Assembly (NCBI GenBank): GCA_038110525.1
Contig: JAYNJV010000004.1
Span: forward strand, 17,577 to 81,576
Reading direction: 5' to 3'
DNA length: 64,000 bases
Origin: Candidatus Poseidoniales archaeon
GTDB taxonomy: Archaea > Thermoplasmatota > Poseidoniia > Poseidoniales > Poseidoniaceae
Position numbers and translations under genes: made by a program. Positions within the stretch are counted from its first letter, which is position 1. Every line of letters starts with the position of its first letter. The notes below the pieces were generated by a model. The model did not search any database. It was not told the DNA's origin and saw only the letters and a program-made list of their open reading frames with translations. This document shows positions 7,402 to 56,247 of the stretch, one piece after another.

Positions 7402-7486
7402 AATTGCTTTCTGCCTATTGTCTCACTTTTGAGCAATTTTCACCCTCTATCCGAATACGACTCTTCATGAAGGTGTGGTTTCACGC

Positions 7487-8200
7487 ATGGTCATGATTGC
7501 CTCGATTCAGGCAGCCCTTGATGCCTTTTCTCGTGGCCTCCCTGTCTGCCTTTTTGATTCGGAAAAAAGAGAGGGCGAAACCGACCTGCTCTTCCTCGCC
7601 GAACATGCTCAACCAGCAACCATGAGGCAACTGCGAAAAGATTGCGGTGGCCTTCTTTTTCTTGCTATTGGCCATGAAGTTGGAGAGATGTTTGGCCTTC
7701 CATTTTTACAAGATTTACACACCGATGCTTCAGCTACCGAGCAGCATCCAGTCCTCTCACATCTGATAACCCACGACCTCAAGTACGATTCCAGATCAGC
7801 CTTTACCCTTTCACTCAATCATCGAAAAACCTACACTGGCATTACCGACCACGATAGGGCGTTGACCACTCGCAGATTTGCAGAACTCACCCGAGAGGCC
7901 AAGCAAAGCGGAGCAAACCAAGAGCAAGCCATGAGCATGCTCGGACAAGAATTTAGGACACCAGGTCATATTCCCGTGTGCCGGGAATCGCCCGGAGGTT
8001 TATCCAAGCGTCAAGGGCACACTGAACTCGCTGTCGGTTTAGCACGACTTGCAGGTGCTACACCTGTGGTCATAGGTGCAGAAATGCTCGAACCAGATGG
8101 CGATTTTGCCCTTCCCGTGAACGAGGCTGAAAAGTGGGCAAGCGAACGAGGAATTCCGTTTTTACATGGTGCAGAAGTGATACAAGCACTCGGTCTATAG
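7487..8200 (+). CDS. ribB: 3,4-dihydroxy-2-butanone 4-phosphate synthase
   Basis: SEKREGETDLLF and TPGHIPVCRE...GHTELAV blocks typical of DHBP synthase. First gene of a riboflavin cluster. ATG at 7487 preferred over GTG at 7475. Confidence 0.85.
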   Translation: MVMIASIQAALDAFSRGLPVCLFDSEKREGETDLLFLAEHAQPATMRQLRKDCGGLLFLAIGHEVGEMFGLPFLQDLHTDASATEQHPVLSHLITHDLKYDSRSAFTLSLNHRKTYTGITDHDRALTTRRFAELTREAKQSGANQEQAMSMLGQEFRTPGHIPVCRESPGGLSKRQGHTELAVGLARLAGATPVVIGAEMLEPDGDFALPVNEAEKWASERGIPFLHGAEVIQALGL

Positions 8201-8231
8201 AAATGAATGAGGTGGTCAATTGAAGCGAGTG

Positions 8232-8663
8232 ATGGCCGTTGGAGTCTTCGATTTACTTCACGCAGGCCACCTTCATTATCTCGAACAAGCCAAACTCCTC
8301 GGTGACCATTTGACCGTCGTGGTCGCCCACGACGATACCGTTCGTCAGCGAAAGCACGACCCCGTCACGCCCCACGAACTGCGTTGCCGAATGGTTGCTG
8401 GACTCAAACCCGTTGATGAGGCCATCATTGGAAATCCTCCGAGTCAACCGATTTTCGATATTTTGCCCGTGGTTGAGCCCGATATTATTGCCTTGGGCTA
8501 TGACCAAGAACACGCCGAGGAATCGATTCGCAAAAATCTCGAAGAGCGTGGCTTTGGCCACATTCTTGTGACTCGAGTCGAAGGACTTTCGGACGACCTT
8601 GATGGTACTCGCAAAATCATCGCCCGCATCATCGAACGTGCTCGACAAAATGGAGACCATTGA
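8232..8663 (+). CDS. ribL: FAD synthase, archaeal RibL type (cytidylyltransferase-like nucleotidyltransferase)
   Basis: GVFDLLHAGHLHYLEQAK (HxGH nucleotidyltransferase motif), about 140 aa, embedded between ribB and riboflavin synthase. Confidence 0.7.
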   Translation: MAVGVFDLLHAGHLHYLEQAKLLGDHLTVVVAHDDTVRQRKHDPVTPHELRCRMVAGLKPVDEAIIGNPPSQPIFDILPVVEPDIIALGYDQEHAEESIRKNLEERGFGHILVTRVEGLSDDLDGTRKIIARIIERARQNGDH

Positions 8664-9261
8664 CATGTTTACTGGCATCGTTCAGGGGATTGGCAATGTC
8701 ACAGGCGTGACACTCCACGAAGCTCATCGAAGGTTGACCATCGTTCTTCCAAATGTCGAGGGTTTGAACATTGGAGCAAGTGTGGCTATCGATGGTGTTT
8801 GTCTTACTGCAGTCGCTATCAACGACAGTGAAGTTCATTTTGATGTGATTGAAGAAACCATTAGACGAACGACACTCGGTGGCCTTGAGCAAGGCTCGGT
8901 GGTCAATGTGGAACGGTCCCTCAAATTTGGAGATGAACTTGGCGGGCATCTTTTGTCGGGCCACATCATGGAGATGGGCGAAGTCATTGAAGTGAAGTCG
9001 TCTTCAGAAACGATGGATGTTCGTCTGCGTGTTTCTCCTCATGTTCGACAGTACATCGTCGAAAAAGGCTACGTGGCTATCAATGGTGTATCACTTACGA
9101 TTGGGGCATGCGAAGAAGATTCATTTTGGTTGCATCTGATTCCCGAAACGCTCCAACTCACCACATGTGATGCATTTACAGTAGGTCAAATGACAAATAT
9201 TGAAATTGACAACACCACGCAGGTGATTGTCGAGACCGTCAAACGACAACTTGGGAAGTGA
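8650..9261 (+). CDS. ribE: riboflavin synthase (bacterial/eukaryotic trimeric type)
   Basis: Canonical N-terminus MFTGIVQGIGNV, and an internal duplicate lumazine-binding half (GHIMEMGEV...VAINGVSLTI). Start at 8650 or 8665. Confidence 0.85.
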   Translation: METIDMFTGIVQGIGNVTGVTLHEAHRRLTIVLPNVEGLNIGASVAIDGVCLTAVAINDSEVHFDVIEETIRRTTLGGLEQGSVVNVERSLKFGDELGGHLLSGHIMEMGEVIEVKSSSETMDVRLRVSPHVRQYIVEKGYVAINGVSLTIGACEEDSFWLHLIPETLQLTTCDAFTVGQMTNIEIDNTTQVIVETVKRQLGK

Positions 9262-9265
9262 AACA

Positions 9266-9661
9266 ATGCGAAAAATATCGGTCGTCTGTGCGAGTTATCA
9301 TCTTGAAGAAATTGAGGTCATGCTCTCCTTTGCAAAGCAAGAATGTGCCACCAACAACATCGAAATTGCTGACATTGTTTGGGTTGCAGGTTCGTATGAA
9401 CTTCCACTCGCAATTTCACGAGAAATTCAAAAGAAAGGCATTCACGGTGCTGTGTGCCTTGGCGTGATCGAAAAAGGTGAGACCGATCACGGAAAGGCCA
9501 TTGGTTTGAGCATTTTTTCAAAAATTCTCGATATGCAAATCGAACACAACAAGCCCATTGGTTTGGGTATCATCGGTCCTGGGGCAAAACCAGAGCATGT
9601 TGCTCCACGACTTGAACACCATGCACGAAATGCCGTTCAAGCACTGCTGTCCTTCTTCTGA
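9266..9661 (+). CDS. ribH: 6,7-dimethyl-8-ribityllumazine synthase
   Basis: VAGSYELPLA and CLGVIEKGETDHGKAIG blocks (G-x-F/Y-E-L/I-P and LG-x-VI-x-G-x-T-x-H). Last gene of the riboflavin cluster. Confidence 0.8.
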   Translation: MRKISVVCASYHLEEIEVMLSFAKQECATNNIEIADIVWVAGSYELPLAISREIQKKGIHGAVCLGVIEKGETDHGKAIGLSIFSKILDMQIEHNKPIGLGIIGPGAKPEHVAPRLEHHARNAVQALLSFF

Positions 9662-10200
9662 GATTTGTCTCGAGCAATGACAATGGCCCAAAGCAGAATC
9701 AGGGCACCAACATTTGAAAACCAAATGATCGGATTTGACCACCTGATACCATCGTACATGGCATCCGAAATCGGATAGAACACAGGTGTAGGGAAGAAAT
9801 TCAGCGTATGTGTTGGAATATCGAGAAGGATGTGGATGTACCACGGAAGCCATAGCCACATCGCAAGTTTGAGCGGGTTGCCGCGACTCTGCTCCTCGAA
9901 TTGTTGCTCAAATCGGCTCCCCTTAAAACGGGAAAAAAGCGAGTAGGATAAGAGAAACGCAAGGGTCACAATGATGGCACTGTGGCTATACTGGTAGATG
10001 TCCCAAGCAATGGCAGGAAAGTCAGAGGTGAGGGTGGTGTCGTCGACGCTGGTTCTTTCAATCCCGTACATGAAACTGTACATGGCTGAAGGAATGAAAG
10101 CGAGCAAGTCAGGTAGCACGCCCATAGGACCCGCAACTTTCCAATTCACTCGCTTTCGAGTGGCGAGCACGCCCCAGAGCCAATGCGAGAGGACGTCCAT
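9637..10200 (-). CDS. membrane-bound metal-dependent hydrolase family protein (DUF457/YdjM-like)
   Basis: Family-typical start MDVLSHWLWG followed by several TM helices and conserved His residues. I trimmed the 60-codon N-terminal ORF extension (to 10380), which runs through the recombinase promoter and site region. Start is uncertain. Confidence 0.5.
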   Translation of the reverse strand: MDVLSHWLWGVLATRKRVNWKVAGPMGVLPDLLAFIPSAMYSFMYGIERTSVDDTTLTSDFPAIAWDIYQYSHSAIIVTLAFLLSYSLFSRFKGSRFEQQFEEQSRGNPLKLAMWLWLPWYIHILLDIPTHTLNFFPTPVFYPISDAMYDGIRWSNPIIWFSNVGALILLWAIVIARDKSQKKDSSA

Positions 10201-10246
10201 GTGCGGAGCGAGAAAGAGGGCGTTCTTCAATCCGACCCTTTGTGTT

Positions 10247-10266
10247 GACACACCGTGGGGTATGTC
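10247..10266. repeat. left boundary site GACACACCGTGGGGTATGTC
   Basis: 16/20 identical to the right site, including an 11-nt perfect run GACACACCGTG. Arms GACAC/ATGTC flank a 10-bp spacer. Confidence 0.6.
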
Positions 10267-10326
10267 GGACCATATGGCCACGCAGAAACGTGAATTTTCC
10301 ACCTGCTTGCCCAAGCAGAGAAAAAA

Positions 10327-10345
10327 GACACACCAACTCAGTGTC
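10327..10345. repeat. internal third copy GACACACCAACTCAGTGTC, upstream of the recombinase promoter
   Basis: Same GACACACC 8-mer and a perfect GACAC...GTGTC dyad (9-bp spacer). Lies 25 nt upstream of the TATATA box at 10371. Confidence 0.5.
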
Positions 10346-10370
10346 AAGAATTTGAGGCGTCGCGTGAGTG

Positions 10371-10376
10371 TATATA
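10371..10376 (+). promoter_or_regulatory. TATA-box-like element for a leaderless recombinase transcript
   Basis: TATATA lies 23 nt before the ATG at 10400, the spacing expected for an archaeal leaderless mRNA. No experimental support. Confidence 0.3.
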
Positions 10377-10399
10377 GCAAGCCTGTACCATATGAGACG

Positions 10400-11119
10400 A
10401 TGGCTAAGCAGAAACAAGCAGAACAATGCGTTCTCTATATTCGAGTCTCCTCCACTCGCCAAGCCGAAGACGGTGTGAGTATTGATGCCCAAATTGCGAG
10501 AGGCAAACTTCACGCACAATACATGAATTTTCTGCTGCCCGATGAAAATATTTTCATCGATGAGGGCGTAAGTGCCACAACCCCATTGTGGTCAAGACCT
10601 GCTGGTAAGCAGATGCGGGAGTTCATCACCAAGCAGAAGATTAAGCAGATTATTGCGTATCGAATGGACCGATTATTCAGAAGAACCGTGGATTGTCTTG
10701 CTACGGTTGAAGAATTGGATGATGAAGGCGTGAGTATTCAATTCTGTGAATCAGGTGGTCAGCCTCTCGATTTGTCGTCGGCTGTTGGACGTATGCTCAT
10801 CACTATCATGGCGGCCTTCGGTGAAATGGAGCGAAATCTCATCAGCGAGCGAACGTGTATGGCCATGCAACATCTCAAAGCGAATGGCAAGAGGTTCACT
10901 TACGACAAATATGGATGGGATGTTGATGAAGACAACAACTTCATTGAGAATGAAACAGAACAGTATTGGATTGAATACATCAAGGTGAGATACCATGAGG
11001 ATAACATCTCAATCTCACAAATTGCAAGAGAACTCAACACCTGTGGGGTTCCAACCAAGCGTAATGGAACCTGGTCTCACAAACAAGTCTCACGAATAAT
11101 CGCTCGCCAAAATGAATAA
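10400..11119 (+). CDS. small serine recombinase (resolvase/invertase family)
   Basis: N-terminal catalytic block VLYIRVSSTRQAEDGVSIDAQ (nucleophile Ser), then YRMDRLFRR and MERNLISERT blocks. C-terminal HTH-like ISISQIARELN..GVPT. The upstream 134 codons of ORF 9998..11119 were rejected. Confidence 0.85.
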   Translation: MAKQKQAEQCVLYIRVSSTRQAEDGVSIDAQIARGKLHAQYMNFLLPDENIFIDEGVSATTPLWSRPAGKQMREFITKQKIKQIIAYRMDRLFRRTVDCLATVEELDDEGVSIQFCESGGQPLDLSSAVGRMLITIMAAFGEMERNLISERTCMAMQHLKANGKRFTYDKYGWDVDEDNNFIENETEQYWIEYIKVRYHEDNISISQIARELNTCGVPTKRNGTWSHKQVSRIIARQNE

Positions 11120-13022
11120 CAAATTAGATCAATCCAGGTGTGTTGGTTTAATCGTGTCAGAAGATGCGTTGACTTTTACAATGACTCCAAAGAAAGGTTT
11201 CTTTGGCATTGGTAAATCAAAGGCAGAATGTTTCACATGTCCAAAGGCAATTTATCCATCATTAAAACAAGAGTTTGACTTATCAAAAACAAATCTCCAA
11301 CAAAGTGCAACATTGGTTATAGAAAACGAAGAGTACCCTTTTCTTGTTAGGCTTGTAAATATGAATAGGACTAAAGTTAGAAAATTACTTCCCTCAAAAT
11401 TGATTAAGCGGGAGACGATACAATTCTCTTGGAAATCAGACCCACAAACTCAATCAAAGATAAAGGAATATCTTGCAGGATCTTACTCCCAGCTCCTCGA
11501 TAATAATGAAGCCACTGTTGACCCAGTAGTGTTCAGATATTGCGGTAATAAAAGATTCAAACTTGAGCGAAAGGAGCCAGACGACAATAACTCGCAAGTT
11601 TTCAAGATTGGAATAGAGTATAGGGATACTGGAACGCCAACATCAAGTGAAGACGAGTTCATGGGTTGGATAAATATAGAAGGCAGTGGAATAAAGAATG
11701 CGGGAGGTATTCGTGGAATAAAGTCACTAAGAACTGGGCACTCTAGTTTGGATGCATTGATCTTGGTTACAAGTCATAAACCTGGAAATTTGCACAACCC
11801 TTGGGATGATAAAATAGATTCTAGCGATTCTACTATGTTCTATTGGGGAGATGCTAAACAACATTCTGATAAAGGTATGATGGATTTTCAGGGGAATAGG
11901 CATTTGATGGAAGCAAAGGAGAATCAAATACCAATATTACACTTCATAAGAAACAGACAAAGTTATGTGGAATTTTCAGGCATATATCTAATGCAAAACC
12001 TGGAAACAAAACAAATGACTGATCAAGGAAAAACGATTGAAAATCTGTTTGTTACCTTAGAACGGACCCAAGACAGAGCTGTCAACTGTGAATGGTTAAG
12101 AGATTGGAGAACCAAAGACGATTGGGCAGAGAGAATCAAGAATGGCCCCACAGACTGGTTATCGAGAATAAAACCTCAGAAAACAGGTTCAAATATTCAA
12201 TCAGAAGATCACATTGTCGCTAACATACCGAGCTCTTTTGTCCAGAGGAAAATCAAATTAGCCAATGATCGCGGTAATGGTGAAGCAAAACTGTATATTG
12301 GACCGGTTAAGAATAAAGAGGGGTATGAAAAATTCTTCTGTAATTGGCACCCAATGAATACTTACGAATTGGATCGGGTCAATTTACTACTTTACCTTCA
12401 AGACGTTGAACTGGAATTTTCCAAGCAAAGCAAATACAAGGCAGTAAGTAAGAAACTATACTACGAGTTGTTCAATAAAGTTGAGAGATTAGATGACAAT
12501 CGAATAGACTTGACTTACCATGAAGACAAGTCTAGATATTACATCCGTGGTACCAGCGAAGCTTGGAAATTGATTCGAAAAACCTGTTTACCACTAATTA
12601 CAACCCTGTTAATCGAAGTAAAATCGAGTAATAGTGATGGTTCATGCGATTATGTTGTGAGAATTTTATGCTCAGGCGAAGGAAGAGCGGCAAATCCAAC
12701 TAGTGGTATGAAGAGTAAATCGAGAAAAAAAAGGTCTCAAAGGAAAGCCAAACAGATTAAATTCAAGATGACACCTGAAGATAGCCGCACAATTAGTGAT
12801 GACTTAAAGGACAGAGTTTGGAGGCGTGATCAGGGAATGTGTCAAGCAAATTACAAACTTGATTCACGATTTGACAAGAATACAGGAGAGATTTGCGGTT
12901 CAAACGAGAATTTGGAATTCGATCATATCGTTCCATTTTCTAGGGGAGGAAAGACTACCTATAGGAACCTGCAATTGCTTTGCAGAACCCATAACCAGAT
13001 TAAATCAGATAGAGAAATCTAG
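11112..13022 (+). CDS. multidomain HNH endonuclease (unassigned N-terminus, SRA/YDG-like middle region, C-terminal HNH)
   Basis: C-terminal HNH: LEFDHIVPFSRGGKTTYRNLQLLCRTHNQIK. Residues ~185-300 (GIRGIKS...ALILVTS...NPWDDKIDSSDSTMFYWGDAKQ...FQGNRHLMEA...IPILHFIR) follow the block order of SRA/YDG 5mC-binding domains. ATGAATAA overlap with the recombinase stop codon. Confidence 0.7.
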   Translation: MNNKLDQSRCVGLIVSEDALTFTMTPKKGFFGIGKSKAECFTCPKAIYPSLKQEFDLSKTNLQQSATLVIENEEYPFLVRLVNMNRTKVRKLLPSKLIKRETIQFSWKSDPQTQSKIKEYLAGSYSQLLDNNEATVDPVVFRYCGNKRFKLERKEPDDNNSQVFKIGIEYRDTGTPTSSEDEFMGWINIEGSGIKNAGGIRGIKSLRTGHSSLDALILVTSHKPGNLHNPWDDKIDSSDSTMFYWGDAKQHSDKGMMDFQGNRHLMEAKENQIPILHFIRNRQSYVEFSGIYLMQNLETKQMTDQGKTIENLFVTLERTQDRAVNCEWLRDWRTKDDWAERIKNGPTDWLSRIKPQKTGSNIQSEDHIVANIPSSFVQRKIKLANDRGNGEAKLYIGPVKNKEGYEKFFCNWHPMNTYELDRVNLLLYLQDVELEFSKQSKYKAVSKKLYYELFNKVERLDDNRIDLTYHEDKSRYYIRGTSEAWKLIRKTCLPLITTLLIEVKSSNSDGSCDYVVRILCSGEGRAANPTSGMKSKSRKKRSQRKAKQIKFKMTPEDSRTISDDLKDRVWRRDQGMCQANYKLDSRFDKNTGEICGSNENLEFDHIVPFSRGGKTTYRNLQLLCRTHNQIKSDREI

Positions 13023-14611
13023 TTTTCCAATAACGCTGCCACAACACGTTCCAAGTCAGCCTGTTGGATTTGTCTTTCAGGCAATTCGTCAAACAACTCT
13101 TTGACCCTAATGGCTCTTTCCTTGAGGCTATTGAAAGTCTTGTCCTTAGCAGCAAGAACAGGAATTGCCTGCGCCATAATTGCGATAAGGACATCAACGA
13201 CGATTGAGTTGCCTGCTTGCCTGTAAAGCTGATTGTTTGACACAACCTGCTTGAATGAATCACAGAACCCCATCAGCCTCAAACACTCTGTAGGAGTTAA
13301 CATACGAATTCGACCTTCAGTAGTAACATAATTGTCGACACCTGCTCTGTGATTCTTGTGCATTGTTGATAGCAACGGCCTTGCAACCTCGAGGTCAATC
13401 TTAGGTATTGACCTGAAGCCTTTCGTGCCTGTTGCCATTACATATGTCTCAACTTTTTGGCTCAAGAAGTGCTTTTCATCAATCAGATGCTGGCCATTAT
13501 TTTCTTCTACGAAAACAAAGTCACCATGCCAATTGAACTGCTGATTTGCTTTCTGACAAAGCATGATTTCTCCGTCAATTTGAGTGTACTGTTTCCTGTG
13601 ATTTTTCTCCCAAGTCACAAAATCAACACCTTTGGTTCCGAGATAGAATTTACCTGCTACATTGTCCTCAAGGAAATCTTGCATCTTGCTTTTTAGTTCG
13701 ACAGGTTCCGGGAATGTGAAATCAGAACCGTCGTTAAGGAAGCCAACCACGAACACTCTTTGGCGATGTTGTGGAACTCCGTAATCCTTCGAATTAAGAA
13801 CTTCGTGGTGCCAGGTATAACCTGTATTATCAAAGCACTTTGAAATAACTTCCCACGTCTTTTTGTTATCGTGAGTGTACACGCCTTTGACGTTCTCCCA
13901 AATGAATATCTTAGGCTTTATTTCGTCGACCAATCGTACAAAATCATAGAATAGGGTCCCTCTAGCGTCATCAAATCCTTCTTGGTGACCAACGAAAGAG
14001 AAACTCTGACAGGGGCTCCCTCCAACAAATAGGTCGATTTCTCCTTCATACTGCTTACCGTCCAAAAATGAAACGTCTTTGTGGAAATGTTCAGAAGGGC
14101 AATCATAATTTGCAAGATATGATTCCTCGACGAATGCCTTTTTCCCACGCAACTCATAGAGTTCATTCACTAATTCACGTCTCAACTTTTGATCTGAAAT
14201 TGATTGAATACTCAATCTTAACACATCTTCGATAGAAGGAATATCGACTTCTTTTTCAGCTAGTAATGCATTGTGGAAATCACAAACTAACGATGTGTTT
14301 GAAAGTTTTAGGAAATCCTTTTCATTTTCAAAAGTGGTTTGCGGTTTGATACCGTGTAGAAACGATTTCTCATCTTGGCTACATCCATCCATCCAGCAGC
14401 AATTCAACTTGTGTAGTCCTTCAAATGAGGCTCCTGCATCGTCCAATTTAGCAAGCAGGTCTTTCAATTTTTTTACCGATGTTACTTTCTCTGCCCAATC
14501 GATATTACTGTTGTCACAAGCAAATGCAACTTCATAATCGATTCCCATTCTTTCGAGAGCATGTTCTATTGCCCCTATGCCTGAGAATACGGTTCCTAAT
14601 CTCATGGGCAT
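13019..14611 (-). CDS. DNA (cytosine-5)-methyltransferase with an enlarged motif I-IV spacer
   Basis: Motif I FSGIGA, motif IV GGSPCQSFS, VI ENVKG, VIII QHRQRVFVVGF, IX TPTECLRLMGF, X RQAGNSIVV. About 190 aa separate motif I from PCQ. Confidence 0.9.
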   Translation of the reverse strand: MPMRLGTVFSGIGAIEHALERMGIDYEVAFACDNSNIDWAEKVTSVKKLKDLLAKLDDAGASFEGLHKLNCCWMDGCSQDEKSFLHGIKPQTTFENEKDFLKLSNTSLVCDFHNALLAEKEVDIPSIEDVLRLSIQSISDQKLRRELVNELYELRGKKAFVEESYLANYDCPSEHFHKDVSFLDGKQYEGEIDLFVGGSPCQSFSFVGHQEGFDDARGTLFYDFVRLVDEIKPKIFIWENVKGVYTHDNKKTWEVISKCFDNTGYTWHHEVLNSKDYGVPQHRQRVFVVGFLNDGSDFTFPEPVELKSKMQDFLEDNVAGKFYLGTKGVDFVTWEKNHRKQYTQIDGEIMLCQKANQQFNWHGDFVFVEENNGQHLIDEKHFLSQKVETYVMATGTKGFRSIPKIDLEVARPLLSTMHKNHRAGVDNYVTTEGRIRMLTPTECLRLMGFCDSFKQVVSNNQLYRQAGNSIVVDVLIAIMAQAIPVLAAKDKTFNSLKERAIRVKELFDELPERQIQQADLERVVAALLEN

Positions 14612-14654
14612 CACACATTCCTGTCAATAAAGAGGGTTAATGACTCTTCTGGCT

Positions 14655-15437
14655 TCAATCTCCTCGTTTCTTTTTCCAAAAGTCATACTCTTCAGGTAGT
14701 GAGTCGTAAATCTGGTTGGCGCTCATTGAATACCAGTCTGCGGTTAGTTTCATCTGATTTCTCAAATCTGCAACTAATCGATTGATATTTCCAGGGCGAG
14801 TTTTTGTTGAATATCCTCGTCGCAAAGAACTGGATTCTTCATCCCAATATAGAAGACGTATGACTTCGATAAGATTCTTATTTGATATGACTTCGATTCT
14901 CCCTGCAGTTTGTTCAACGTCATCCCCCCATGAATCCAAGCTTCCCGAAAGTAAAACATCCGCCTGATGTTCAGAATTTTTGTTGTAATCATAAATCAAG
15001 TACGGCCCTAGTGCGTAGTGTCTTCTTCCACGCAATGATTGTTCACTGCCGCTGGAGATATATCTCGGTATGAATTTTGGATATTTCTCATACTGATCTT
15101 TCTTTTCCATCGGAACCTTTCTTCTTCCATTAGCGTCGACTGGACAAAATTGATCGAAATATCTCAAGACAATTGAGGCCCAAAAGTTCCTATTTTTCGA
15201 CACCATTTGCCTTGAAACTCCTGCCTCTTCGAGGACATGAACCAGATACTTTCCAAAAATTTGTTTGTTTTTGAATGTCATAGTCAATTGTAAATGAACC
15301 TTAGGTGAGAATTCTGTAGAATAGTTACGATCTGTTAACAGGTGAGTGGGTGCTGAACCACCTGATCTCGCACTTTCGTCCAAAAATGTTCTGAACATGT
15401 CAACACCTTCATCAGTCAAGATTCTAAACGCTACCAT
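14655..15437 (-). CDS. hypothetical protein C of the GHKL operon
   Basis: 260-aa ORF. Its ATG lies 1 nt after the stop codon of gene B and is preceded by AGAGGTGA (SD-like). No motif recognised. Confidence 0.6.
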   Translation of the reverse strand: MVAFRILTDEGVDMFRTFLDESARSGGSAPTHLLTDRNYSTEFSPKVHLQLTMTFKNKQIFGKYLVHVLEEAGVSRQMVSKNRNFWASIVLRYFDQFCPVDANGRRKVPMEKKDQYEKYPKFIPRYISSGSEQSLRGRRHYALGPYLIYDYNKNSEHQADVLLSGSLDSWGDDVEQTAGRIEVISNKNLIEVIRLLYWDEESSSLRRGYSTKTRPGNINRLVADLRNQMKLTADWYSMSANQIYDSLPEEYDFWKKKRGD

Positions 15438-15438
15438 T

Positions 15439-16251
15439 TCACTCACCTCTTTCGATGTTGATCAAATTAGAAGATAGAGCCTTACTTTCACTGTAATTTG
15501 CAACTACGTTCCCAATCCACTCTGATGCATCTTGTAAGAATTGAGCTTCATCAGTCTCATTTTCTTCATAAGATGGAGGCGTATTTTCTGGCAACAAGCT
15601 CCTTGCAAATCTTATCCAAGCACCTTTCCATGTTTGGTCTTCGTACCACCTGTACAAATCTGCCTTCATACTGATCATCAAGAAGTTCAACATACCTTCA
15701 AACACCGAAGGCATAATCATTCCCATAACCTTAGAGTCCTCTTGTAGTGGCTTGCCGGAATCCAATGCTACATCCCACCATTTTTGATTAAACACCAATT
15801 TTGGCAGTTCTATTTCTTCATAAACCTCTAATTTCCATGGGCGCTCTCCTAAATCTTCATAATCAGCAATAATTAGGCTTCTACGAGATTTCAAATCAGG
15901 TTGTGCGATTGAGACAGTATGCTTTTTACTAGCGGCCAAAAGATTGCCACCATCAACAACTCTTACAACAAAACTAGCACTTGTCCAAGAATCTAATTCA
16001 GATAATGAAACATTATCAGGACTTACAGGGTTTCCAAATGTGCCATAATCAAAGCGCATGAATGACATATCTTTTCCAACATCTACGAACACTTTGGCAT
16101 TAGGAGGAATTTGTTCCAGTGCAGGTTTCATGCTCCAATCGAATTCCATTTCCAACAATGGTGCTTTTTGATGAATTTTAGAAAGTCTAGCGTCTATACA
16201 CTCCTGTGTAATTAGCATTCGGCCAGTATAGTTGAAGTTTCTACTAGCCAT
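15439..16251 (-). CDS. hypothetical protein B of the GHKL operon
   Basis: 270-aa ORF. Its ATG overlaps the last codons of the GHKL gene by 8 nt and is preceded by AGAGGTGA. Beta-rich N-terminal half, helical C-terminal half. No motif recognised. Confidence 0.6.
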   Translation of the reverse strand: MASRNFNYTGRMLITQECIDARLSKIHQKAPLLEMEFDWSMKPALEQIPPNAKVFVDVGKDMSFMRFDYGTFGNPVSPDNVSLSELDSWTSASFVVRVVDGGNLLAASKKHTVSIAQPDLKSRRSLIIADYEDLGERPWKLEVYEEIELPKLVFNQKWWDVALDSGKPLQEDSKVMGMIMPSVFEGMLNFLMISMKADLYRWYEDQTWKGAWIRFARSLLPENTPPSYEENETDEAQFLQDASEWIGNVVANYSESKALSSNLINIERGE

Positions 16252-18226
16252 TTTCTTCACCTCTGATCAATCTTGGTTGTTTATGATGAACAAATAAATC
16301 TCTATCTACATCAAATCCAGTTACGTCGATACTATATTCTTCTGTTGGGCCAATCGCTCTGAAGACGATTGTATTTCCTTCAGATTTTTCAACAACAATT
16401 CCAGATTCTTCAATTGTAAGATTTTTTACATCAAAGTCAAAAGGTTTCCATTTCTTAATCGGATCTTTGCCATCATCTCGAGCATATGCCATTTTCACAG
16501 TAAATAAGTAATCTACTTGTAAATTTATATCCCCGTGAATTGAGAACCCTCCTGGTATTTTGTCCAGTTCCCACGAATGGTTTTTGCTCAAGTCTTCTGG
16601 AGGTGGTGGAGGCCCAATTATTGTGTCATCTTCATCATTAACTTCATCCTCAGTAGGATTCTTTATCTTCTTTTTCCGTTTCCTTTTCTTAGGCTTGCTA
16701 GAATTTTCAATTTCTTCGGATGGAAACCAATCGTCAATCCAATCTTTCTCAAATAGCTCTTTCTTCACTTGTAAATACTCAATTAATTGTGATGCTGATT
16801 GACGGAAAAATCTGATAATATCTCTTCCATATTTGTAAAGAGACTCAATCCTTGTTGGCCGATGTTCAGTATGTGCAACCTCTTCACTGGATCTTAGCAA
16901 TTCTTCTAATTCTCCATCTTCCGAAACAATTATGCAAACAAAACCGTTCTTCTTAGGTCTGTAATCAGTTTTTGGAACTGACAGATATCTTCTAATCCAG
17001 ATGGCATCAGATCTACCAAATGACTCATCCTTTTTCATCAAAATTGTGAATTTAGATAAACTTGGTTCTCGAGGTAGTCTTTTGTTTTCTAAATACTTGA
17101 AGATTGGAACTTCAATGTTTAACGCAACAGGTTTTCCAGAATCTAAACGGGATCTGATTGTATCATAACTGTCTTCAGGAATTAAATCCCTATTCCAAAC
17201 AATGTTTTCGTTTGAAGGCGAATCAAGCGAAAATTCATTTGCATTACCACTACTCCACCAATTAGCTAATTCGATTAGTCCATTCATGCATTTTCTGTTT
17301 GTTGTAGCCATTGCTCCAGCAGGCTTCCCTACCCAAGTCATTTTGTCACAGATTTTGTAAATAGTTTCAGAATTTATCACTATTTCATGACTTCCATCAA
17401 CTATAATTTCCAATTTTCCTTGGCAAATTGGCATAAAATAAGCACGAATCATACTTTCAATAATTTCCTCGTCCCTGTAAACTCTCTTGGGATATGGAAT
17501 TATCACTGACAACCCTAATTCGTCTGTTCTGCTGAGATTGAAATCTTTGCTAATTATTTTGAATAATTCTTCCGAATCCGATGGCATGATACGTAAAACT
17601 TCGCCATTATCATCTACAACAACATTACCAAAATCGCCATAGGGGAAGTAAATTTGATCTCCAATCTCATGCATTTTGCCGACCGCATTTCCAAAAATTT
17701 TCACTCCATTTCTGTCTCTCGATACAGAAAAGAAGGAATTTATTTCCGACGCATTTGCGAAAGCATGTTTCCCGTAACCATACGATCCACCACGTTTTGT
17801 GGCGTTAGAATTTGTTCGATTTGTGTTTCTATGGAACCAATAAAACCTATTGTCAGGAGCATCTCCTCCAAGGCCATGATAACTTGCATCACCCTCTAAT
17901 CCCTTTGTTCCAAAATCTTCTACTACAACGTAATTCATGGGGGAATTGAGATTTGGGGTTGAAAATCCAGATTCGTTTAGATGATGAAATAATCCATTGA
18001 AGTATTTCTTTGCCATATCAGCAGACATCGCATTATTTCCAGTATTTACTGAGATCCTCATTCTGACCTTGGATCTATTATCAGAAGCATCAAGACTGTT
18101 CTGAGTTGATTCTCTAATCACCGCTCCCAAGGGAGGTAGATTTTCGAAAAGAATACCCTCGGCAGGATCTACGTTCCTGTCCCTTTCTCTCTTTGCAACA
18201 AAATGCCAACTTGGAATCATAACCAT
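16244..18226 (-). CDS. GHKL-superfamily (Bergerat fold, MORC/MutL/Hsp90-like) ATPase with a long unassigned C-terminal region
   Basis: N-box VIRESTQNSLDA (E-x3-N-x2-D-A), G1 box VVEDFGTKGL (D-x-G-x-G), G2 box KRGGSYGYGKHAF. Later a basic linker SSKPKKRKRKKKIK, then GPPPPPE, then a ~110-aa beta-rich tail. Start at ATG 18226 (MVMIPSW), preceded by a G6 run. Confidence 0.75.
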   Translation of the reverse strand: MVMIPSWHFVAKRERDRNVDPAEGILFENLPPLGAVIRESTQNSLDASDNRSKVRMRISVNTGNNAMSADMAKKYFNGLFHHLNESGFSTPNLNSPMNYVVVEDFGTKGLEGDASYHGLGGDAPDNRFYWFHRNTNRTNSNATKRGGSYGYGKHAFANASEINSFFSVSRDRNGVKIFGNAVGKMHEIGDQIYFPYGDFGNVVVDDNGEVLRIMPSDSEELFKIISKDFNLSRTDELGLSVIIPYPKRVYRDEEIIESMIRAYFMPICQGKLEIIVDGSHEIVINSETIYKICDKMTWVGKPAGAMATTNRKCMNGLIELANWWSSGNANEFSLDSPSNENIVWNRDLIPEDSYDTIRSRLDSGKPVALNIEVPIFKYLENKRLPREPSLSKFTILMKKDESFGRSDAIWIRRYLSVPKTDYRPKKNGFVCIIVSEDGELEELLRSSEEVAHTEHRPTRIESLYKYGRDIIRFFRQSASQLIEYLQVKKELFEKDWIDDWFPSEEIENSSKPKKRKRKKKIKNPTEDEVNDEDDTIIGPPPPPEDLSKNHSWELDKIPGGFSIHGDINLQVDYLFTVKMAYARDDGKDPIKKWKPFDFDVKNLTIEESGIVVEKSEGNTIVFRAIGPTEEYSIDVTGFDVDRDLFVHHKQPRLIRGEENG

Positions 18227-18257
18227 CCCCCCGAGATAAGAATTTAACAAATACGGC

Positions 18258-18264
18258 TTATATA
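18258..18264 (-). promoter_or_regulatory. TATA-box-like element upstream of the GHKL operon
   Basis: TATATAA on the minus strand, about 32 nt upstream of the ATG at 18226. Sequence resemblance only. Confidence 0.25.
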
Positions 18265-18298
18265 CAAATCGCTATATCAAAAGTTGAAATAGGACTAG

Positions 18299-18318
18299 GA
18301 CACACCGTGCAGAGTGTC
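18299..18318. repeat. right boundary site GACACACCGTGCAGAGTGTC
   Basis: Perfect 5-bp dyad arms GACAC/GTGTC around a 10-bp spacer. Same orientation as the left site. Sits between the GHKL operon promoter and the trxB promoter. Confidence 0.6.
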
Positions 18319-18396: not shown

Positions 18397-19341
18397 ATGA
18401 CGCTTATGACAGAAGTACGCAATGTCATCATTATCGGTTCTGGCCCTGCAGGTTATACAGCTGGACTGTACGCTGCACGTGCTATGCTCAACCCACTCAT
18501 GTTTGCAGGCTATATGTCGGGTGGTCAGTTAATGCTTACAAGCGACATTGAGAACTTCCCCGGCTATCCTGAAGGCATCGGTGGACCTGAGATGATGATG
18601 CAACTTCGAGAACAGGCAGAACGTTTTGGACTCGAAGTCCAAGACCGCAATGTCGAGAGCGTCGATATGTCAAAACGCCCATTTTCCGTTCACGTTGAGG
18701 GCGAGGAATTCCTAGCACATTCACTCATTATCTGCACTGGAGCAGAATCGATTTGGCTTGGAGCACCAGGTGAGCAGGAGCAAAAAGGGCGGGGGATTTC
18801 CACATGTGCTACCTGTGACGGGGCATTCTTCCGCAACGAAGAGGTTCTTGTCATCGGTGGTGGCGATTCAGCGTGCGAAGAGGCTACATTCCTGACTCGA
18901 TTTGCAAGCAAAGTGACCTTGGTTCATCGAAGCGAAACCTTCCGAGCATCAACCATCATGTACGACAGGGCGGCGAACAACGAGAAGATCGAAATCAAGA
19001 CATTCAGACAGGTCAAAGAGTGGCTCTCGGATGACAAAGGGCTTTCAGGGGCGATTCTCGAAGACCCGAGAACCGGTGAAACCGAAGAGATTTCAGCAAC
19101 GGGAGCATTCATTGCTATTGGCCATAAACCCATCACCTCGTTCCTTGAGGGTCAAGTTGAAACCGATGAAAACGGCTACATTATCCACAAATCTCACACC
19201 ATGACCTCCGTGCCGGGCGTGTTTGCTGCAGGTGATGTGGTTGATACTCGCTATCGTCAGGCGATTACTGCCGCTGGAATGGGGTGCCAAGCCGCTATTG
19301 ATGTTGAGAAATGGCTTGAAGAACAAAACATCGGTCACTGA
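18397..19341 (+). CDS. trxB: thioredoxin-disulfide reductase
   Basis: FAD motif IIIGSGPAGYTAGLYAAR, redox-active CATCDG, NADPH motif VIGGGDSACEEA, C-terminal GDV..T.YRQA.TAAG.G. Confidence 0.9.
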   Translation: MTLMTEVRNVIIIGSGPAGYTAGLYAARAMLNPLMFAGYMSGGQLMLTSDIENFPGYPEGIGGPEMMMQLREQAERFGLEVQDRNVESVDMSKRPFSVHVEGEEFLAHSLIICTGAESIWLGAPGEQEQKGRGISTCATCDGAFFRNEEVLVIGGGDSACEEATFLTRFASKVTLVHRSETFRASTIMYDRAANNEKIEIKTFRQVKEWLSDDKGLSGAILEDPRTGETEEISATGAFIAIGHKPITSFLEGQVETDENGYIIHKSHTMTSVPGVFAAGDVVDTRYRQAITAAGMGCQAAIDVEKWLEEQNIGH

Positions 19342-56160: not shown

Positions 56161-56247
56161 GCGGCAGTCGCATAGCCTGGCCATTGCGCCGGATTGCTAA
56201 TCCGGTGGTGTCTCACCGCGGGAGTTCGAATCTCCCCTGCCGCGCCA
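56161..56247 (+). tRNA. tRNA-Ser (anticodon GCT), encoded CCA
   Basis: Hand-folded cloverleaf: acceptor GCGGCAG/CTGCCGC, D-loop with GG, anticodon stem CCGGA/TCCGG with loop TTGCTAA, long variable arm GGTG-TCT-CACC, T-arm GGGAG-TTCGAAT-CTCCC, discriminator G plus CCA. Confidence 0.9.

Follow-up and report, generated by a model that had tools for sequence, protein, structure and literature searches.

A probable serine-recombinase integrative element with exchangeable defence cargo, inserted at a short dyad upstream of trxB in a Poseidoniales archaeon

The described systems closest to the locus reported here are the SCCmec-type staphylococcal cassette chromosomes (SCC), which are non-replicative and non-conjugative cassettes of cargo genes that a serine recombinase inserts at a short specific chromosomal site, and the large serine recombinase (LSR) integrases such as Bxb1, TP901-1, phiC31, and A118. 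LSR integrases are typically longer than 400 amino acids (aa), and their zinc-ribbon and coiled-coil domains control directionality. Here we describe an island in a stretch of 64,000 nucleotides (hereafter the window) from a Candidatus Poseidoniales archaeon. The Poseidoniales are uncultured and are among the most abundant planktonic archaea. On comparative sequence evidence, the island between positions 10258 and 18309 is very probably a minimal site-specific integrative element of the Poseidoniales (Marine Group II) in its integrated state. Its backbone would comprise a left leader of ~150 bp, the gene of a 239-aa serine recombinase, and a right terminus of 26 bp, with everything between these parts being exchangeable defence cargo. 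In what follows, attB is the chromosomal target, attP the site on the excised element, and attL and attR the left and right junctions; B and B′ are host arms, and P and P′ are element arms.

By analogy, the SCC cassettes appear to be the closest functional counterpart of the window element, which shares the features just named. Further likenesses are direct repeats at the ends that hold the integration site (an 11-bp repeat in the window), a site that is regenerated and allows tandem stacking, recombinase-less modules and remnants in arrays, accessory or defence cargo, and CcrB as the best NCBIfam match of the recombinase. The differences are an archaeal host, a recombinase of 239 aa that corresponds to roughly the N-terminal 45% of a Ccr protein and misses the Ccr cut-offs, a single-gene backbone, and many attB dyads, mostly intergenic, in place of one site in rlmH (3′ end, orfX). 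In sequence and structure, the LSR integrases are the best matches from the catalytic domain through helix E to the beginning of the recombinase domain. As in those systems, attP and attB are apparently different imperfect dyads, attP seems to be the longer of the two, and attL and attR share little beyond the central 2 to 3 bases. Unlike LSR integrases, the window recombinase has no zinc ribbon or coiled coil and only half a recombinase domain, the attB core measures ~20 bp, and the element carries neither prophage or viral genes nor a conserved candidate directionality factor.

The leader of the element recalls the Tn3/gamma-delta resolvases, which are likewise small proteins with several dyads of different spacer upstream of the recombinase gene, by its promoter, and with two directly oriented crossover sites. 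Unlike Tn3, however, the six open reading frames (ORFs) of the element encode no transposase domain, the termini are P and P′ arms rather than terminal inverted repeats, accessory-like sites occur on one partner only, and the reaction would be integration and excision at varied chromosomal sites rather than cointegrate resolution. In both sequence and fold, the recombinase is nearer to the LSRs than to Tn3 resolvase. Integrons offer a parallel in their arrays of promoter-poor single-gene cassettes, each with a recombination site at its end, beside a recombinase gene, and in the swapping of cargo at a fixed site. They differ in using the tyrosine recombinase IntI rather than a serine recombinase and folded attC hairpins rather than duplex dyads, whereas the recombinase here moves with the cargo. 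No tyrosine recombinase was found among the ORFs of the window element or the most-represented cargo families of the other elements described below.

In bacteria, Gin/Hin-like EF_B0058 homologues are statistically linked with a wide range of antiphage genes, those for type IV restriction and Schlafen-like proteins among them, in the systems named RADS, and the authors postulate that the recombinase mobilises these defence genes (Andersen et al., PLoS Biol 2026, PMC13552941). Attachment sites, excision, and archaea did not come up in a term search of that article; by comparison, the elements considered here are archaeal, have an apparently LSR-derived recombinase, and have defined ends, target consensus, crossover position, and presence/absence alleles. 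The only integrated mobile elements of Poseidoniales in the literature searched were the Charybdis elements, circles of ~4.6 kb with a conserved structural module, several of whose integrated copies lie beside tRNA genes (bioRxiv 10.1101/2025.08.03.668216). Charybdis elements and the present family are both integrated in Poseidoniales genomes and carry methyltransferases and an integrase or recombinase, but the present family has no structural module, spans 3 to 10 kb, and uses dyad targets unrelated to tRNA genes. The same literature contained no published description of this family.

The occupied site upstream of trxB has an empty counterpart. We retrieved 80 Poseidoniales loci by trxB homology, using homology-based scans since exact-protein look-ups of the window trxB and recombinase returned no match. 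The closest locus that keeps both flanks (L001; trxB 98% identical in aa sequence) has a 147-bp spacer between the membrane-protein gene and trxB that contains a single dyad, GACACACCGTGCCGAATGTC, which is the arrangement that the preliminary description of this DNA had set beforehand as a check of its proposal. When the element is deleted from the window in silico, the remaining sequence aligns with this empty site without gaps at 86% identity over 301 nucleotides (nt), placing the insertion/empty polymorphism exactly at the dyad, with the boundary ambiguous within the 11-bp repeat. Other alleles occupy the same attB. Different recombinase-bearing elements are found there in L126 (trxB 97%) and in L114 and L101, and a 2.8-kb restriction-modification (R-M) island that has no recombinase is found in L002 (L002:120-2922). 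In all, trxB is 97 to 99% identical in L001, L002, L032, and L126. Orthologues of the left-flank protein adjoin trxB or elements in L001, L101, and L114 at 82 to 83% aa identity, and the protein is ~45% identical in more distant genomes.

Two of these alleles have further detail. The L002 island consists of a 160-aa ORF, an N4/N6 methyltransferase gene, and a 347-aa ORF. Of the P′ arm of the element, only 17 bp (GGGTATGTCGGACCATA) are left in this island, and its right end is degenerate. Its attL equals that of the window plus 8 further bases, being identical over 28 bp. At the trxB site of L101 (L101:675-820), and also in L114, the host flank is separated from the intact element by a 145-bp remnant that has lost the core and most of the P′ arm; GACCATA and the right-end-like GGCTTCAAGGACACACCGTG survive, which we read as evidence of successive insertions and decay.

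Several other explanations of features at this locus were considered and set aside. A dyad serving as a conserved host regulatory element of the trxB and membrane-protein promoters does not fit its absence from that spacer in more distant relatives. Nor are the large gaps that precede trxB in other genomes, such as the 3.7 kb in L008, further elements; that gap holds an ordinary 1,179-aa gene and no dyads. The sequence ACACACCGTG, found ~720 bp upstream of trxB in L034, L043, L047, and L074, had the look of a conserved site but is part of a coding gene in a lineage of higher GC, a single chance match inherited by four orthologues. Targeting of a tRNA gene was also rejected, as the sole tRNA in the window is at 56161.

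Two directly oriented 20-bp dyads had been reported to bound the island, and a sequence check found them as claimed (GACACACCGTGGGGTATGTC on the left and GACACACCGTGCAGAGTGTC on the right), alike at 16 of 20 positions, including an identical run of 11 nt. The third dyad (GACACACCAACTCAGTGTC) and a separate palindrome were likewise at the positions reported, and the third dyad is 19 bp long with a spacer 1 bp shorter than that of the crossover site. The expectation that the motif is not common elsewhere was borne out. Allowing up to one mismatch, GACACACC-N7-GTGTC matched the two boundary sites only in 64 kb, with 0.05 expected from shuffles, and GACACACC itself occurs exactly three times in the window. 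A weight matrix derived from the target sites of other elements gave attR the top score in the window, 31.5 bits, and gave attL 25.4 bits, compared with a maximum of 18.2 bits over 30 shuffles; it picked out no further site in the 64 kb. Across related Poseidoniales loci totalling 1.34 Mb, the full 20-bp dyad GACAC-N10-RTGTC occurs at the trxB locus only (L001 and L002), and looser 19- to 21-bp GACAY...RTGTC matches are present elsewhere. The comparison also refines the earlier picture in two respects: the boundary 20-mers appear to be hybrid sites (B plus P′ in attL and P plus B′ in attR) rather than plain repeats, and the true right end appears to reach ~15 bp farther inward (TTGAAATAGGACTAG). 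As read from these arms, attR restores a complete attB-like dyad.

The recombinase and end sequences bound many islands in other contexts, in agreement with the proposal that the island is a mobile unit bounded by recombination sites. Marine metagenomes and Poseidoniales genomes abound in recombinase homologues with 59 to 93% identity and a natural length of ~236 to 240 aa. The DNA homology of the window element to ~28 other marine contigs starts at 10243 to 10249 and stops at 11088 to 11101 (the recombinase stop), a span that defines a common backbone of left site, 150-bp leader, and recombinase gene. To the left of the core lies unrelated host DNA, with 21 distinct left flanks, and 25 distinct right flanks were found. 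A set of 36 elements of ~2.9 to 10 kb combines the recombinase gene with the right-end motif TTGAAATAGGTCTAGGACACACCG-TG, and TTgAAATAGGTCtAGGACACACCGTG is common to 38 distinct right ends. In ~50 of 80 metagenome contigs (L086 to L165), the recombinase gene is broken by the contig end, as expected of a repeated mobile backbone. Breakage of assemblies at this repeat means that such islands are probably underrepresented in metagenome-assembled genomes (MAGs). Truncated recombinase fragments on the very long contigs P0020 and P0039 were considered as relics and rejected, most genes on these long-read contigs being fragmented; the truncation is probably an assembly-error artefact.

The leader is highly conserved over 25 distinct left junctions, with the P′ arm (GTATGGCCGACCATATAGC), the palindrome, the third dyad (site III), and a TATA box; in the family alignments, three dyad elements (the crossover site, the palindrome, and site III) are thus kept upstream of the TATA box. 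Alignments of these junctions retain the extended P′ arm, as does the recombinase-less L002 island. The palindrome is present in nearly all elements, including a clade with 59% identity (L137), and may be an accessory or regulatory protein-binding site. Site III is kept as GGACACACCAACCCAGTGTCC in most elements, and in L110, L113, and L114 its outer GGACA/TGTCC is retained with an altered spacer. Conserved outer arms with a shorter spacer fit a non-catalytic recombinase-binding site upstream of the promoter, and site III is a candidate for an accessory or autoregulatory site of this kind. The analogy with Tn3 res sites that was drawn for the third copy is therefore plausible, given its conservation across the family with a 1-bp shorter spacer. 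TATATA had also been noted upstream of the recombinase gene and is present, although the start codon is at 10400 and not 10402 and the spacing is 22 nt; TATATA or TAAATA is kept at this position across the family. The short distance from TATA box to ATG implies a leaderless archaeal mRNA, and both features are consistent with a Poseidoniales (Marine Group II) archaeon as the host, the assignment to which the relatives of trxB lead. Outside the core, the element arms carry conserved sequence specific to attP, TTGAAATAGGTC... and ...GACCATATAGC. A search for an extended attP palindrome gave no clean one: the outer arm motifs ATAGGTC and GACCATAT are inverted with an offset of ~2 bp and are accordingly taken only as attP-specific conserved sequence.

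The position of strand exchange can be narrowed from the junctions. The host flanks yield the dyad target consensus GACACACCG-TG-CnGAGTGTC, in which TG is invariant in 21 of 21 left junctions. The element in L081 is informative because its target is atypical: attL is ATCACAGGG-TG-GGGTATGTC, attR is GACACACCG-TG-CCCTTTGAT, and these junctions share GTG alone, while the reconstructed attB, AATCACAGGG TG CCCTTTGATT, itself forms a dyad with TG at its centre. The same limit follows from L091 and L096, and the window sites diverge directly after GTG. The exchange is thus confined to GTG, and the symmetry centre of the dyad favours TG over GT as the exact overlap; in the window, the crossover would fall at TG 10256-10257 and TG 18308-18309. 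Serine recombinases need a 2-nt overlap, and tyrosine recombinases need more central identity. The minimal central identity of two different imperfect dyads is what a serine recombinase requires.

The identification of a small serine recombinase held up, with a match to Pfam PF00239 (Resolvase) at E = 1.2e-31 and 110 bits (cut-off, 23.3) over residues 11 to 164. PF07508 was matched only at positions 2 to 51 of 102. Residues R15, S17, D90, R91, and R94 are invariant in 20 homologues, all of which have the same C-terminus, and S17 lies in an RVS(S/T) motif whose aligned counterpart in TP901-1 integrase is the TRVS motif close to the N-terminus. The catalytic domain of TP901-1 integrase is also the best Protein Data Bank match by sequence. 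The best NCBIfam matches (CcrB, XisF, and CcrC) are all far below cut-off, with CcrB at 1.9e-25 and 89.5 bits (cut-off, 900) over residues 5 to 228 of a 542-position model, CcrC at 62 bits (cut-off, 900), and CcrA at 34 (cut-off, 700). Serine transposases of the IS607 family have a MerR-like HTH at the N-terminus and the catalytic domain at the C-terminus; here the catalytic domain is N-terminal, and NF033518 scored 22 bits against a cut-off of 110. An AlphaFold (AF2) model has a pLDDT of 78, and its top Foldseek matches are Bxb1 and other LSRs (TM, 0.53 to 0.65, over ~240 columns); the model aligns along its full length and covers only the first ~240 residues of these LSRs. Sequence and model together suggest that the recombinase is a natural "half" LSR, in which the catalytic domain and helix E are followed by just the first helical part of the recombinase domain. 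This architecture of ~225 to 260 aa is widespread, as more than 100 clusters (at 50% identity) span the whole protein at 32 to 44% identity, and we know of no characterised member. One relative with 37% identity (L168) has a Dcm/HNH/Vsr cluster ~8 kb away on the same contig.

Comparison among elements points to movement of the whole unit and to exchange of its cargo. The element in L093 is 90% identical to that of the window over 7,868 bp, has a different right flank, and contains one additional PLD-like gene. Ca. Poseidonia alphae L170 provides a third site; both element ends were identified there, and the gene order is that of the window element: recombinase, HNH nuclease, C5 methyltransferase, two small genes, and a GHKL homologue (69% aa identity). 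Conversely, two Ca. P. alphae genomes (L085 and L170) have the same left flank and different cargo. Among 116 cargo cluster representatives from the 36 elements, the most-matched Pfam families almost all belong to R-M or defence, among them Type I HsdM/S/R, Eco57I-type IIG, Type III R-M, ResIII/SNF2, C5 and N6/N4 methylases, Z1/DUF4420/HATPase_c_3, GmrSD, MutH, MvaI/BcnI, SRA, Mrr, AIPR, and Schlafen-like helicases. No cargo family was common to all elements compared, and the recombinase is the only gene present in every one of them. In 5 of the 36 elements (L085, L095, L114, L126, and L128), a second copy of the right end lies 0.36 to 2.1 kb downstream of the first. The second modules thus delimited hold one or two genes, including a Schlafen-like helicase, AlbA_2, and DUF7669/NucS_C beside a 109-aa ORF. 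An apparent attP or tandem array in L109 and L110, in which a right end abuts a left end, proved to be merely a host B arm.

These observations can be assembled into a mechanism. The recombinase, probably the catalyst of element movement, would act on an excised circle carrying an attP of approximately ...TTGAAATAGGACTAG GACACACCG-TG-GGGTATGTC GGACCATATGGC... Recombinase dimers would bind this site and a chromosomal attB dyad of the form GACACACCG-TG-CnGAGTGTC, cut both with a 2-nt stagger at the central TG, and religate after rotation to give attL and attR, with excision as the reverse reaction. The palindrome and site III would serve as accessory or autoregulatory sites. Since the inner P half-site equals the preferred B half-site, integration would leave a full attB-like dyad at attR, where further elements could stack or swap; such re-use of attR would explain tandem recombinase-less modules, remnants, and cargo replacement. 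Of the general traits of a site-specific integrative island, those found here are occupied and empty alleles with base-precise junctions, a recombinase at one end, and the same termini in unrelated contexts. A more far-reaching proposal is that the 239-aa half-size serine integrase, an attP of ~45 bp, and the 20-bp dyad attB form a complete integration/excision system, which, through regeneration of attB at attR, could drive serial capture and cassette exchange of defence systems at a dozen or more chromosomal dyads in Poseidoniales. We advance this only tentatively and consider it rather doubtful. If it is true, the system would correspond to the integron, with a serine recombinase as its enzyme, and would be the principal driver of defence-gene turnover in some of the most abundant archaea of the ocean, with directional integration achieved without the zinc-ribbon and coiled-coil module.

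A number of observations weigh against an integrative element of this kind. The intergenic DNA of L001 is ~14% different from that of the window, and the insertion is thus not demonstrably recent. The L002 island and the second modules in the five elements named above are without a recombinase, and those second modules have left junctions that resemble GCGAGnnATTT rather than a canonical P′ arm, which suggests that some rearrangements need further events. At assembly level, no circular attP junction or excision product was found in the 80+ contigs examined (L081 to L170). Nor did the viral contigs of IMG/VR contain a relative of the recombinase or a copy of the right-end 23-mer, leaving a virus or satellite origin unsupported. 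The right-end core of L097 has a host-like base at position -2, and the right-end centre is TA, not TG, in L093 and L169. The domains that control directionality in typical integrases of the superfamily, and would bias integration against excision, are absent. All data are MAGs and metagenome assemblies and constitute sequence evidence only.

The two TA centres are GGACGCACTG-TA-CCCTGTGTG (L093:9828-9859) and GGAACAGACCG-TA-GCGAGTGTAC (right end of L169, ~13250 to 13290). In the L169 clade, the recombinase is 43% identical, the right-end motif TGAAATAGGT is still present, and the cargo is defence-like (PD-(D/E)XK, UvrD, and an N6/N4 methyltransferase).

The recombinase-less modules invite an integron-like alternative, in which the mobile units would be cassettes composed of cargo and a right-end site acting like attC, captured and released in trans at attR or attL by a resident recombinase module. 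The three-gene L002 island between the same sites, with its 17 bp of P′ arm, agrees with such a platform, as do the one- and two-gene modules bounded by a second right-end copy in 5 of 36 elements and the perfect attB-like dyad at attR. We nevertheless regard it as unlikely, because the recombinase moves with the cargo and the whole unit from recombinase to right end is found at many sites rather than at a fixed platform locus; moreover, the left junctions of the internal modules are not conserved sites, and no module was found in two different arrays. Its supporting evidence reads better as an extension of the integrative-element model, by tandem accretion and decay as in composite SCC islands.

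Two further explanations dispense with integration by the recombinase altogether. The enzyme could be merely a resolvase or invertase, the dyads its res or operator sites, and the islands could be exchanged at a hotspot by homologous recombination of their flanks. The region upstream of trxB is variable in length among Poseidoniales generally, the leader is res-like in having several dyads of differing spacing that overlap the promoter region, and invertase activity has been suggested for small serine recombinases linked to bacterial defence genes (PMC13552941). This account is very improbable all the same: whatever the context, the junctions fall on the dyad to the base, and precisely one dyad is left at the empty site; backbone and termini stand beside unrelated host genes in a way that flank homology cannot explain, distant relatives with other genes in the interval are wholly without the dyad, and crossover sites in inverted orientation to each other were not found. 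A static R-M locus passed on vertically, with a chance or regulatory motif and a low GC content that stems from its genes, could appeal to the modest GC contrast (0.395 versus ~0.46 to 0.48) but is scarcely credible in view of the empty site in the closest relative, the differing cargo at the same site, the occurrence of the element type at three sites, and a motif frequency far above chance.

What emerges as the most probable picture is an integrative cassette of the serine-recombinase type in an archaeon, with an LSR-like enzyme of half size and 20-bp dyad targets that can be defined by sequence. It would provide a concrete, sequence-defined mechanism for the gain and loss of R-M and other defence genes in Poseidoniales genomes and would account for the assembly breaks at such islands. 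It would also supply a mechanistic piece for the bacterial observation that small serine recombinases mark defence loci and extend the SCC-like "cassette chromosome" logic to archaea. Should the enzyme be active alone, it would bear on directionality control in serine integrases and might become a compact genome-engineering tool. The conserved termini are a search handle for uncharacterised defence genes, for example, the operon of methyltransferase, 263-aa, 273-aa, and GHKL-like genes carried by the window element (Table 1).

Table 1. Features of the window element, its flanks, and related second modules (window coordinates unless a locus is given)
Feature	Coordinates	Strand	Remarks
Integrated element	10258..18309	+	8,052 bp; in-silico deletion versus L001 empty site
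attL	10247..10266	+	Host B arm GACACACCG, central TG, element P′ arm GGGTATGTC
Extended P′ arm GGGTATGTCGGACCATATGGC	10258..10278	+	Kept at left end of all family members
Palindrome CTGCTTG-CC-CAAGCAG	10303..10318	+	Arms kept, loop variable
Site III, GACACACC-AAC-TCAGTGTC	10327..10345	+	Third dyad
TATA box, recombinase promoter	10372..10377	+	TATATA; 22 nt to ATG
Serine recombinase, 239 aa	10400..11119	+	Pfam PF00239
SRA-like (AspBHI_N) and HNH nuclease, 636 aa	11112..13022	+	Cargo; Pfam/PADLOC profile searches
C5 cytosine DNA methyltransferase, 531 aa	13019..14614	-	PF00145, 2.1e-70; TIGR00675 dcm
263-aa cargo protein	14655..15446	-	Part of conserved 4-gene operon
273-aa cargo protein	15439..16260	-	Part of conserved 4-gene operon
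GHKL-like ATPase candidate, 660 aa	16244..18226	-	Only match PADLOC candidate family PDC-M33A, 5.4e-12
Right end (P arm), TTGAAATAGGACTAG-GACACACCG-TG	18284..18309	+	Conserved right terminus of the family
attR	18299..18318	+	P arm GACACACCG, TG, host B′ arm CAGAGTGTC
Left host flank, 187-aa membrane protein	9637..10200	-	ORF; no Pfam match at E ≤ 0.01
Right host flank, thioredoxin reductase (trxB)	18397..19341	+	Pfam match
Second modules	L085:17544-18749; L095:6844-8922; L114:6707-7086; L126:6419-7899; L128:7671-8888

The island differs in composition from its surroundings, with a GC content of 0.395 (0.387 in the cargo) against 0.455 to 0.478 in the flanks. The drop noted in the preliminary description is thus real and milder than its hand counts had indicated, and it does begin in the 3′ part of the recombinase gene, where 100-bp windows fall from 0.51 at 10800 to 0.36 at 10900. 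The flanks had been described as housekeeping genes; this is upheld for trxB, whereas the label "DUF457" for the left-flank protein was not confirmed.

Six genes are encoded in the interval. The 636-aa nuclease is a predicted methyl-directed, type IV-like restriction enzyme. No family match in Pfam, NCBIfam, or PADLOC was obtained for the 263-aa and 273-aa cargo proteins, whose genes are co-conserved with their neighbours in L093; in L170, a 260-aa gene takes the place of the 263-aa gene, and the gene order is the same. The 660-aa protein has no Pfam domain, and its homologues are all annotated "hypothetical." The four-gene operon is always paired with a methylation-dependent HNH nuclease (window 11112-18226; L093:720-9330; L170:10001-16893), the reader domain of which is swapped: the window and L093 have SRA/AspBHI_N, and L170 has Mrr_N. 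The presence of a methylase beside a methyl-directed nuclease is a functional puzzle.

Just upstream of the left flank, at 7475 to 9661, riboflavin/FAD genes were identified by eye from the ORF translations; they encode a RibB-like protein, an archaeal-type cytidylyltransferase-like FAD synthetase, riboflavin synthase, and lumazine synthase. Across the Poseidoniales loci, the interval from ribH to trxB ranges in length from ~0.1 to 8 kb.

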